Positions 4,773 to 6,527 of a stretch of DNA of 37,754 nt are shown in pieces. The position numbers and the translations under genes are program-made. Every line of letters begins with the position of its first letter. The first letter of the stretch is position 1. The notes under the pieces are model-generated. The model was not told the DNA's origin and did not search any database. It was given only the letters and a program-made list of their open reading frames with translations. Source of the DNA: a virus; IMG/VR virus record IMGVR_UViG_3300046346_000048; one strand, written 5' to 3'.

Positions 4773-5090
4773 CTACGCAGATAAGAGAACGTTCATGTTC
4801 CAACCTGGGGCACTGTTTATTACGTTCCCGTAATAAGCCAGCCTGACCTCAAGAGCGTCCGCATTTCCAACTCTTAAGCCTTCCAACCCCTCCATGCCGT
4901 AGGTCAGAATGTGCGGTGCTTTTCCAAGTGTACGCAGCTTCCATGTATCCATAGTCAAACACCATGCTGTTTGCGGTTGGCATGAACGATCCGCAACAAC
5001 TGGAATTTTTCCATAAGCACTGTGGAAATGAATAGCTTCGAAAGCTACTTCAACTTCATCATGCTCAAGCATGACATATTGAACTTTTGC
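4773..5090 (-). CDS. Major capsid protein, exon 3 (105 codons plus stop)
   Basis: The frame of the 99-aa ORF (4773-5072) is open upstream to 5123. Intron 2 ends in G at 5091, and exon 3 then reads AKVQYVMLEHDEVEVAFEAIHFHSAYGKIPVVADRS... This is a typical capsid C-terminal pattern (G.iPVv.s) and is in frame with exon 2. Confidence 0.75.
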   Translation of the reverse strand, partial: AKVQYVMLEHDEVEVAFEAIHFHSAYGKIPVVADRSCQPQTAWCLTMDTWKLRTLGKAPHILTYGMEGLEGLRVGNADALEVRLAYYGNVINSAPGWNMNVLLSA

Positions 5091-5291
5091 CGTTTTGTTA
5101 CTCCACCTTTCGGTGTGGCCTACTCACCTCTTCGGGCTTCGGCTCTCGGATTTTATTTATTGTCCGAGTTCAGACTATCGCATCCCTTTCGGGTCTTCTC
5201 ACTTAGTCGTTCACGCTGCTTTCGCTTGCGCCCTGTCAGCCTGTCGGCCTTCCAAGTCAATCAGAGAAGATTTAGACTGGGCACAAAGTTT
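5091..5291 (-). ncRNA. Group I-like self-splicing intron 2 in the capsid gene (201 nt, no ORF)
   Basis: Paralogue of 6093-6306. The 5' exon ACUGGGU pairs with intron GCCCAGU (5276-5282), with a U:G wobble at the junction. The intron ends in G. Intron AACUUU pairs with 3' exon AAAGUU (P10). There are several GNRA-capped hairpins. Removing the intron joins ...STLVNELG to AKVQYVML... in frame. Confidence 0.8.
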
Positions 5292-6092
5292 ACCCAGTTC
5301 GTTCACAAGAGTTGAGTAACTTAGAAAGTCGATCACGATAAGATCGCAGTCTGCACCCTCTCGGTTTGCAAATGCCAAGGCATTCGTTAGACCTTCGGAG
5401 ATACTTTGAGATGAAGCATTATAGCGAAGCCCTGCTAAACGAGTAGGATCTGCACTACGATTTACTCCCCAGAAATTGTCTGTAGTTGGAGGATCTACAG
5501 AAGGAACCCATGCAGCCAAACCTGAAAGGCCGAGCATACCAGCAATAGTAGAGCTTCCACCAATACCGATATCACCCAAAACTTGTAGGTAGTCACTAGC
5601 AACCCATGATGATTGTGGGGCACCTTGTACAACCGTACCAGAGATTGCACCCGTACCTCGATTTACTGAAGTGATTTGAATTGCATCAATAGTACCTGGT
5701 GTATTTTGTAATGCTGCACCACCATCTGTTGTAGATGCTTGCATTGTCATGCCTACCTCAAACTGCACTACAGATTGAGGATTAAGCAATGTAAAGCTAA
5801 GCGTAGGCGCAACATACGTAACACCTGCTGCTGAGATTTGCCCACGTGATGCAGTCCCACCGTAGAACAACTCGAATGCCATGTTGTTACTAAGGTTGCG
5901 GAAGCCGTTGTCTAGTGTACGAGATGCTTCATCAACAAATGCACCTGCATTACTTTTGGTTTGTTCCATAAGTAAATTGGTAATTGTTATGAGCTGGTAA
6001 TCCTGAATCGCATACACAAAGTAACTTACAACATCACTTGCTGTTTGCTGATTCTGAGCATTCGCAAATGTGTGACTTCGACCTTGTGGATT
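5292..6092 (-). CDS. Major capsid protein, exon 2 (267 codons)
   Basis: This is the core of the 294-aa ORF 5211-6095. The apparent ATG at 6095-6093 is the last 3 nt of intron 1. The apparent C-terminal tail KLCAQSKSSLIDLEGRQADRAQAKAA is a translation of intron 2. The gene follows portal and scaffold genes. Confidence 0.75.
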
Positions 6093-6306
6093 CATTTTGT
6101 TACTCCACCTTTCGGTGTGACCTACTCACCTCTTCGGGCTTCGGCTCTACCACTTCTTTTGTTATATGGTAGTTCAGACTGTCGCATACTCTTTCGAGCC
6201 CCTCTCACTCAGTCGTTCACCGTGCTTTTGCTTCGGCCCTGTCACCTGCTTCCAGGCTTCCAAGTCAATCAGAGAAGGTTTTAATACGGCAATTCCATAA
6301 GGTTTA
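6093..6306 (-). ncRNA. Group I-like self-splicing intron 1 in the capsid gene (214 nt, no ORF)
   Basis: The 5' exon UACGGU pairs with intron GCCGUA (6285-6290), with a U:G wobble at the junction. The intron ends ...AACAAAAUG, so the terminal nucleotide is G. Intron UGGAAUU pairs with 3' exon AAUCCA (P10, with one bulge). Removing the intron joins ...KYIPVPLEYG to NPQGRSHTFANAQ... in frame. Confidence 0.8.
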
Positions 6307-6336
6307 ACCGTACTCTAATGGGACGGGAATATACTT
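6307..6336 (-). CDS. Major capsid protein, exon 1b (KYIPVPLEYG)
   Basis: A short open stretch with no start codon, in the +2 frame relative to exon 1a. It ends exactly at the P1-defined 5' splice site of intron 1. Confidence 0.6.
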
Positions 6337-6377
6337 CCCTGCACAAAATCACATTAGATGATGGGTCTGCTATTTAA
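6337..6377 (-). other. Non-translatable gap inside capsid exon 1 (candidate ribosomal bypass gap or mini-intervening sequence)
   Basis: The exon 1a frame stops at TAA 6356-6354. The exon 1b frame is closed by TAG 6372-6370 and TGA 6351-6349. A 7-bp hairpin, GAUGGGU (6383-6377) with ACCCAUC (6366-6360), contains Gly codon GGG 6380-6378. An identical GGG lies at 6339-6337. Confidence 0.5.
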
Positions 6378-6527
6378 CCCATCTGGACTCTCGTTTTTTG
6401 GAATCATTGCTAGCAACGGATTCTTGTTGTAGACAATGTTCTTCATGTAGTCTTTGTCATCCACATACAATTCTTTTAGAGCAGCAAGCTGATTGCTGCT
6501 ATTAGCATATTGCGGACTGATAGTCAT
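6378..6527 (-). CDS. Major capsid protein, exon 1a (50 codons, MTISPQYANSSNQLAALKELYVDDKDYMKNIVYNKNPLLAMIPKNESPDG)
   Basis: The ATG at 6527-6525 lies 5 nt after the scaffold gene stop. The full in-frame ORF is 59 aa, so it falls below the track cutoff. The sequence resembles capsid N-termini (..L.ELY......v.....Pl.a.i.k), judged from memory. Confidence 0.6.

Follow-up and report, generated by a model that had tools for sequence, protein, structure and literature searches.

Evidence for compact group I introns, and for a core-less companion element, in a phage major capsid gene

In an uncultured tailed phage, IMG/VR virus record IMGVR_UViG_3300046346_000048 (37,754 nt, the entire JGI contig 3300046348 Ga0456332_000002, analysed over its full length and herein called the window), the major capsid gene is interrupted at positions 6306-6093 by a 214-nt insert that is, very probably, a compact group I intron without an open reading frame (ORF), predicted from sequence and covariation to be spliced by group I chemistry. 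An original prediction, made from the letters of the DNA alone, had proposed a group I-like intron here. That proposal is borne out by a covariation-supported core with a P3/P7 pseudoknot, a P1 helix with a U.G wobble at the splice junction, a P10 helix, and a terminal G. The same gene carries a sister intron (5291-5091) and a 32-nt element (6375-6344) that has P1 and P10 pairings and no catalytic core. The genes in the analysed region lie on the minus strand; coordinates are those of the window, and sequences are written in the sense (RNA) direction.

Exons, inserts, and the predicted capsid protein

Aligned with its homologues, the capsid gene resolves into four exons. Exon 1 (6376-6527; MTISPQ...PKNESPDG plus the UU of a Phe codon) matches residues 1-50 of uninterrupted 435-aa homologues and abuts the 32-nt mini-intron AAAUAGCAGACCCAUCAUCUAAUGUGAUUUUG (6344-6375), which has a P1, a P10, and a terminal G and lacks P3-P9. 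Exon 2 is 37 nt long (6307-6343; U GCA GGG AAG ... GAG UAC GGU, or (F)AGKYIPVPLEYG), its sense reading up to 6307 being GGG AAG UAU AUU CCC GUC CCA UUA GAG UAC GGU. Intron 1 (6093-6306), placed by homologue boundaries, covariation, and a covariance model, opens with UAAACC and closes with GGUGGAGUAACAAAAUG. Exon 3 (5292-6092; NPQGRS...LVNELG, 267 aa) begins AAU CCA CAA GGU from 6092 and is separated from exon 4 (4773-5090; AKVQYVMLEHDE...NVLLSA plus stop) by intron 2 (5091-5291), a 201-nt sister copy of intron 1 placed by homologue boundaries and a model match. The numbering of the original prediction made intron 1 the first interruption of the gene, which did not hold: the start of the gene does not run on into the short exon that ends at 6307, because the core-less element at 6375-6344 lies between them, 37 nt upstream of intron 1.

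Without 6306-6093, ...PVPLEYG runs directly into NPQGRSH..., and the homologues read YIPVPLEYGNPQGRSHTF unbroken over this junction; the earlier claim that the excision rejoins the capsid frame is thus upheld by uninterrupted 435-aa proteins that are continuous there. The joined protein has 3,465 relatives at E ≤ 1e-5, the best of which are 435 aa long and 85-90% identical over 100% of the query, and the alignment is gapless at both full-length intron junctions (...GKYIPVPLEYGNPQGRSHTF... and ...LINELGAKVQYV...). Excising 32 + 214 + 201 nt gives a 1308-nt coding sequence of exactly 435 aa, and this three-way spliced product aligns without gaps to relatives P0001-P0003 at 89-90% identity. The capsid gene is a single continuous stretch of ~1305 nt in 58 of 80 related viral loci. 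Relative to such intact genes, 6306-6093 is, as judged from the alignments, an insertion whose excision is predicted to restore the conserved protein, and the same applies to 5291-5091. Protein identity alone permits a 1-nt slide of the intron 1 boundary (the Gly codon is synonymous); we set it at 6306/6093 because the exon then ends in U and the intron in G, as the rule requires, and because this agrees with P1. The predicted spliced junctions join CCAGATGGGTT to TGCAGGGAAGT at the mini-intron, GAGTACGGT to AATCCACAAGG at intron 1, and GAACTGGGT to GCAAAAGTTC at intron 2.

The interruptions account for how the gene has been annotated. The Joint Genome Institute (JGI) gene caller breaks it into fragments of 57, 294, and 99 aa, the second of which is the protein that the original prediction had said ORF callers would report. 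The start codon of the called 294-aa ORF (ATG, 6095-6093), which had been recognized as the intron's 3' end, is formed by the last three bases of intron 1; a spurious 99-aa ORF (4773-5072) arises from intron 2, between ...LVNELG and AKVQYV.... Neither intron 1 nor intron 2 contains a sense-strand ORF of at least 30 aa that could encode a homing endonuclease, so that the description of intron 1 as ORF-less stands.

Intron structure, family, and alternative readings

Both splice sites of intron 1 are framed by helices of the expected kind. In P1, exon AGUACGGU pairs over 8 bp with the internal guide sequence GCCGUAUU (6283-6290, the 3' strand of P1, identified by guide/exon pairing), with the U.G wobble exactly at the junction; the six pairs previously recognized (UACGGU with GCCGUA, 6290-6285) are contained in this helix, which extends them. 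The P10 strand UGGAAUU (6291-6297) lies immediately 5' of the guide. Its pairing with the first bases of the 3' exon, also anticipated, is real and amounts to 6 bp, AAU-CCA with UGG-A-AUU (6297-6291), but it is imperfect in leaving one A bulged. Intron 2 pairs ACUGGGU with GCCCAGU in P1 and GCAAA with UUUGU in P10 (5 bp), and its last bases are ...AAAACG. The 5' exon of intron 1 ends in U, as had been stated. The homologues fix the boundaries of both window introns, each of which has G as its last base.

Between these helices, intron 1 can be assigned a complete core. The 5' strand of P3 (6272-6278), J3/4, the 5' strand of P4, J4/5 (GAAG), the P5 hairpin, the 3' strand of P4, and the P6 hairpin together occupy 6220-6278 and are supported by covariation and by the minimum-free-energy fold. 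J6/7 and the 5' strand of P7, A-(C bulge)-GACUG, follow at 6210-6219, within a covarying block that spans 6176-6219. The 3' strand of P3 (6200-6206) makes P3 cross P7, forming the pseudoknot; the P8 hairpin (6188-6199) and J8/7 (AUGCGA, 6182-6187) are placed by the family alignment, and the 3' strand of P7 (CAGUCU, 6176-6181) covaries with its partner and the bulge. The remainder of the intron (6093-6172) folds into peripheral P9 (6147-6172), P9.1 (6121-6144), and P9.2 (6105-6119), supported by compensatory changes between the window copies, and ends in the tail AGUAACAAAAUG, defined by comparison of family tails, with the terminal G at 6093. The minimum-free-energy fold of intron 1 yields P3-P6, P8, and P9 (z = -2.5). 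Introns 1 and 2 share 86% column identity, with compensatory changes between them in P1, P5, P6, P7, P8, and P9.

The P9.1 stem of the window copies (6121-6144 and 5118-5141) reads CCGAAGCC / GGUGAGUAGG, and its GAA / AGUA internal loop resembles the sarcin-ricin (loop E) motif; in most relatives P9.1 is a plain helix capped by CGAAGA.

Relatives of the window introns (herein family A) were gathered with the conserved 16-mer CTGATTGACTTGGAAG, which matches more than 120 viral contigs, and the covariation counts rest on 77 distinct core sequences of a family that holds at least that many. Across these cores, 98.9% of the cells in paired columns are standard pairs, against 38-52% when partners are slid, and two-sided changes occur in 16 of the 25 core pairs, including 6 of the 7 pairs of P3, the helix pseudoknotted with P7. 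Covariation therefore supports the core P3-P4-P5-P6-P7-P3'-P8-P7', with its bulged P7 and P3/P7 pseudoknot. The second pair of P7 is G-C in 77/77 cores and the nucleotide preceding it is unpaired; the flanking pair covaries (A-U in 54, G-C in 22), as do the outermost P7 pairs. By analogy with group I ribozymes, the G-C pair beside the bulge would be the guanosine-binding site. Of 81 members, 73% have a junction U.G within a P1 of 6 bp or more, compared with 22% of shuffles, and a P10 of at least 3 bp is seen in 26/44 members compared with 6/44 at an offset control. Comparative analysis thus establishes, at the level of sequence, the exact boundaries of intron 1, its family, its secondary structure, and the conserved product expected on splicing.

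A covariance model of the family core finds intron 1 at 124 bits (E = 9e-27 in the window) and intron 2 at E = 1.7e-25, E-values that are only rough, and detects exactly two copies in the window. No third full-length copy and no further mini-introns above chance were found there. ORF-less members are 190-243 nt long, and some relatives have long inserts in P6 or P8. The family tail has the consensus GUAACA..G, with AAUG as its commonest ending (14/44). The Shine-Dalgarno-like GGAG plus AUG that the original prediction picked out is indeed present at the end of intron 1, but it belongs to this conserved tail and is not special to the capsid gene.

The family is widely distributed. Among GenBank phages, blastn found two relatives. 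One separates the two parts of a P22-like coat gene in MW202674.1, the other those of a ribonucleotide reductase gene in Roseobacter phage CRP-118. Several full-length family A introns can share one capsid-type gene, with three model matches each in L207, L016, L088, and L076 and two in L161, and capsid genes carry up to 3-4 copies. In the capsid family the insertions concentrate in a hotspot at codons ~30-65, with at least 8 distinct sites, and many further sites are occupied in homologous capsid genes. Among the genome-contig matches to the 16-mer that were listed, 12 of 120 have family A cores (L341, L351, L362, L371, L378, L379, L382, L385, L428, L431, L435, and L442; assigned to Gammaproteobacteria, Iamiaceae, Omnitrophota, Burkholderiales, Clostridium, and an 'archaeon' bin). 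These are probably phage or prophage contigs.

Two other kinds of intron-like insertion were seen in the same material. A second family (family B), with the core ...AAAUCGGGCAAUAUCGGUGAAGGCUGAGAUGCUAAUACCGAG...CCGUAGAGCGUAGUGGAUGAACCUAG and a P1 with U.G at the junction, occurs at the capsid N terminus (codons ~50-62) in L165, L168, L169, L170, L172, L173, L193, L200, and L204; its members match neither Rfam nor the family A model. On the minus strand of L062, ~450-900 nt downstream of a family A intron, an insertion that starts AAAA and pairs CAACGUCU with GGGCGUU in P1 carries an ORF with a LAGLIDADG-like motif (LAGIMDGEG), and is probably a homing-endonuclease-bearing intron of another type.

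Some observations weigh against assigning the window element to group I. The Rfam model RF00028 (Intron_gpI), which the original prediction had recommended as a check, gives no match on the window at gathering (50 bits) or at E ≤ 10, and none at gathering on 33 loci carrying relatives; intron 1 lacks P2 and is close to the lower size limit of the class; and its P10 requires a bulge. The silence of RF00028 reflects, in our view, a gap in the model, because RF00028 finds the three Twort orf142 introns used as controls (64-101 bits) yet misses the window introns. The seed of RF00028 has been described as incomplete, so that phage variants may be missed (2025 study, PMC11878797). The window element is classed here as a predicted group I intron on structural criteria and falls outside the Rfam model. 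The only intron-type match in the Rfam scans, group-II-D1D4-6 at E = 1.9, was at chance level and was set aside.

It is scarcely credible that the insert is instead a non-catalytic repeat (resembling a miniature inverted-repeat transposable element or another selfish element), with either a defective phage whose capsid gene is a pseudogene, or a 294-aa ORF that is a genuine separate gene. Such a reading would accommodate the lack of an Rfam match, the presence of two copies in one gene, and the ribosome-binding-like GGAG and AUG ahead of the 294-aa ORF. It is opposed by the absence of target-site duplications and terminal inverted repeats, by guides that in each copy match that copy's own exon, by a 435-aa protein restored residue for residue, and by covariation that fits a ribozyme core; moreover, several independent samples have yielded the same ~37 kb contig, a recurrence that speaks for a replicating phage. 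We also consider it unlikely that the element is a group I-derived intron that no longer self-splices and depends for its removal on another RNA or on a protein, such as a maturase or chaperone, from the phage or its host. The RNA is very compact, with neither P2 nor an intron ORF, the adjoining 32-nt element is at least one interruption unable to act alone, and many natural group I introns need proteins in vivo. Against such dependence, the core helices, J8/7, J4/5, and the bulged P7 are all conserved and covarying, and ORF-less relatives in many unrelated phages and genes fit an autonomous ribozyme better than a specific cofactor.

If intron 1 is a group I intron, as we favor, the last 8 nt of the upstream exon in the late transcript would pair with the internal guide to form P1, with U.G at the splice site. 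P1 would dock into a core of P3-P8 and P4-P6 held by the P3/P7 pseudoknot, and free guanosine bound at the P7 G-C pair beside the bulge would attack after U6307. The terminal G (6093) would then occupy the same site while P10 aligns the 3' exon, and exon joining would yield ...LEYG/NPQGR.... With the sister intron 5291-5091 removed likewise and the 32-nt element out, the mRNA would encode the 435-aa capsid protein. Catalysis, guanosine dependence, and any need for a protein cofactor are, in this scheme, those expected from the established group I mechanism.

Other JGI samples and Logan runs gave an identical assembly of the capsid region. The window genome also encodes a terminase, a methylase, a P22/SU10-like portal (with sub-threshold portal Pfam matches), and a DUF5906-domain protein that may be a primase-helicase. 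Searches with the capsid protein itself gave only a sub-threshold SU10_MCP match in Pfam, no match in PHROGs, and no tblastn match among 50,697 GenBank phages.

Core-less mini-introns

The 32-nt element at 6375-6344 adjoins exon 2, between ...SPDG and (F)AGKY, where it interrupts the invariant motif SPDGFAGKY, closes all three frames, and offers no restart codon. Excising exactly AAAUAGCAGACCCAUCAUCUAAUGUGAUUUUG gives GGG UU/U GCA GGG, that is GFAG, which is invariant in the homologues. Exon GAUGGGUU pairs with internal GACCCAUC to form a P1 whose junction pair is U.G, U being the last base of the 5' exon; UGC, at the start of the 3' exon, pairs with GCA just 5' of the guide as a P10, and the element ends in G and also holds a J1/3-like AUCUAAU. 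The P1 hairpin is its minimum-free-energy fold, and the pairing pattern is matched by 0 of 20,000 composition-preserving shuffles. No P3-P9 catalytic core is present in the element, and the family core model does not match there. It is identical in independent assemblies, with contigs from at least four samples. Judged from these features, the element appears to work like a group I substrate without being an autonomous group I intron. The phage must have some way of coping with the 32 nt, because one whose capsid gene was broken would not turn up in assembly after assembly.

Similar elements occur elsewhere, making seventeen mini-introns in total (32-54 nt) at about a dozen sites in at least three protein families. 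Nine beyond that of the window (33-54 nt, four other sites) were found by aligning interrupted with uninterrupted capsid N termini, with no RNA rule applied (L165, L169, L170, L171 (two), L172, L193/L194, L204, and L207), so that ten of the seventeen were recognized independently of any such rule. Seven more, in other proteins, came from a scan upstream of family introns followed by a translation check (L017, L043, L046, L076, and L088; L078; L062). Five of the non-capsid elements belong to one further protein family, in which the members corroborate each other: at the sites of the L043 and L076 mini-introns L017 has no interruption, and vice versa, and the L046 mini-intron occupies the site of a full-length intron in L030, L043, and L088. 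Further candidates, in L091 and L103, are unvalidated.

All 17 have a P1 of 7-9 positions (with one internal mismatch in two of them, at site c), a P10 of 3-8 bp, and a terminal G; for each, the combination of P1 ≥7, P10 ≥3, and a final G occurs in no more than 3 of 10,000 composition-preserving shuffles. P1 and P10 follow synonymous exon differences between homologous mini-introns, so that exon GAUGGUUU pairs with loop AAACCAUC in L170 and GACGG with CCGUC in L171. On this comparative evidence the mini-introns are real and conserved; how they are removed we infer.

Each of the 17 lies 18-120 nt upstream of a full-length intron of family A or B in the same gene. Among 81 capsid loci, 19 have full-length introns, and mini-introns are found in 10 of these 19 and in 0 of the 62 without introns; these raw counts overstate the association, since some loci are close relatives and the N-terminal intron hotspot is a confounder. 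We propose that the element at 6375-6344 belongs to a previously undescribed class, helper-dependent group I mini-introns excised by the ribozyme core of the downstream intron, a proposal on which our confidence is evenly divided. Mini-introns would be internally deleted introns left with the substrate half alone (P1 with its U.G, P10, and the terminal G). In the reading we prefer, the downstream intron would use its core to dock the upstream P1-P10 stack and perform both splicing steps, its own P1 hairpin serving as a P2-like spacer where P2 normally sits. Such docking would account for mini-introns always lying 5' of, and near, a full-length intron. A literature search, incomplete in its coverage, returned no description of core-less or helper-dependent group I introns in phages.

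In L171 (~545-600), the 3' end of the second mini-intron (CUAAAGGAAUUGG) repeats the first 12 nt of the junction of the next full-length intron; this direct repeat, flanking a 27-nt exon, may bear on the origin of mini-introns.

Several other approaches were discarded. A P3 strand swap, in which the mini-intron tail would replace the helper's P3 strand and pair with the P3 3' strand, showed complementarity no better than shuffles in 9 of 11 cases. A homology-free P1/P10 scan had a background of 0.4 per kb of sense strand versus 0.68 per kb just upstream of introns, and it served only to nominate candidates that translation then checked. The pattern GATGGGTTN{6,12}GACCCATC was sought in viral contigs, where the 120 matches listed were all chance occurrences outside capsid genes. 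Scans of a metagenome contig collection for spliced mini-intron junctions and for unspliced mini-introns gave zero matches and say nothing on this phage, because the window's own 21-mer GGGTTAAATAGCAGACCCATC is missing from that collection although the window is itself a JGI metagenome contig.

Other ways of coping with the 32 nt fare poorly. A spliceosomal-type GT...AG intron was rejected, as GU-AG boundaries do not restore GFAG, and the closure of all three frames rules out simple frameshifting. The latter observation lends something to translational bypassing in the style of T4 gene 60, in which the ribosome would skip the element and the 32 nt would stay in the RNA; so do two GGG codons, one within an 8-bp stem where the gap begins and the other 41 nt downstream. 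We nonetheless hold bypassing to be very unlikely. A hop from GGG to GGG, the only matched codons, would delete the invariant GFA of SPDGFAGKY, and the codon after take-off is UUA rather than a stop. In the four other mini-introns checked (L171#1, L169, L193, and L207) there is no matched landing codon (GUU...AAG in L171#1, for example), and all 17 end in G and pair guide with exon in a P1 of 7-9 bp that is headed by a junction U.G and accompanied by a P10 of 3-8 bp. It is similarly improbable that the element is a dead intron remnant, either tolerated by the phage or leaving the capsid gene broken. The lack of any catalytic core is what a remnant would show, but this one sits in an invariant N-terminal motif of an essential protein and is unchanged in contigs from at least four samples, while the sixteen comparable elements of other phages have all retained an intact P1, P10, and terminal G, and their P1 and P10 covary with synonymous exon changes.

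Comparison with known systems

Among described systems, the introns of Staphylococcus phage Twort are some of the closest to those of the window. Like the window introns, the Twort orf142 introns (IA2, AF132670.1) lie several to a gene in a phage structural gene, and the two groups have in common the J6/7-P7 sequence AACGACUA...UAGUCUGAAC, a P9 hairpin that immediately follows P7, and a 3' tail in which GUAAC occurs. The family model aligns in register in Twort intron 3 from P3 to the P7 5' strand (AACGACUA), at E = 0.002 in 2.4 kb, a link that is weak but consistent. They differ in that the Twort introns (225-287 nt) have P2 and P7.1/P7.2, helices that the window introns lack, and in being recognized by RF00028. 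In size the window introns resemble the compact Azoarcus tRNA-Ile intron (~205 nt, IC3, with P2) and the psbA intron of cyanophage S-PM2 (212 nt). These too are minimal, lack an ORF, and have GNRA-capped peripheral hairpins, but their host genes differ, Azoarcus retains P2, and blastn found no sequence similarity between these compact bacterial introns and those of the window.

Group I introns in capsid genes have been described in lactococcal phage Tuc2009 and mycobacteriophage LittleE (PMC3706429). As in the window, self-splicing-type introns there occupy the most highly expressed late gene, and the LittleE intron follows a U at the exon end and itself ends in G; it is, however, ~820 nt long and carries an HNH endonuclease gene (PMC3706429), whereas the window has introns of 201-214 nt without an ORF, a pair plus a remnant. 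Because the Tuc2009 and LittleE introns are already known, a capsid-gene group I intron as such is of a known kind, and the core-less mini-introns are the unexpected part. The family nevertheless has practical consequences. With the gene split by callers, the major capsid protein of a whole uncultured phage lineage is mis-annotated or missed, and the standard Rfam model overlooks a group I family that is widespread among phages (more than 120 viral contigs). Because RF00028 misses this family and capsid genes can carry 3-4 copies, the intron load of environmental phages is likely underestimated. The capsid gene of Faustovirus E12 has seven introns described as non-group-I, mostly with AA/TG ends (PMC6247863), which match the terminal dinucleotides of the phage family (AAA...UG); that these are unrecognised or degenerate group I introns is pure speculation.

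For the 32-nt element, the 50-nt coding gap of T4 gene 60 offers an outward likeness, being likewise short, non-coding, and inserted into an essential phage gene, with a stem-loop at its 5' edge that contains a Gly codon; gene 60 has matched take-off and landing codons and a stop after take-off, which the window element does not. The closest precedent lies in the small subunit rRNA genes of fungi (Phialophora, Porpidia, and Arthonia), where degenerate group I introns of 56-81 nt keep P1, P7, and P10, are reported to splice alone in vitro, and are thought to derive from full-length introns by deletion (PMC3160393). They share with the 32-nt element a tiny size, the retention of P1 and P10, and the loss of most of the core. 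The phage mini-introns are 32-54 nt long, lack P7, and lie in protein-coding genes, and in 17 of 17 cases a full-length intron follows 18-120 nt downstream, whereas the fungal study describes no neighbouring intron (PMC3160393). Should the helper model hold, the phage mini-introns would be the smallest group I-type introns known and a natural case of introns handing catalysis to another RNA. Such a transfer has long been postulated for spliceosomal introns arising from group II introns and, to our knowledge, has not been described for group I introns.

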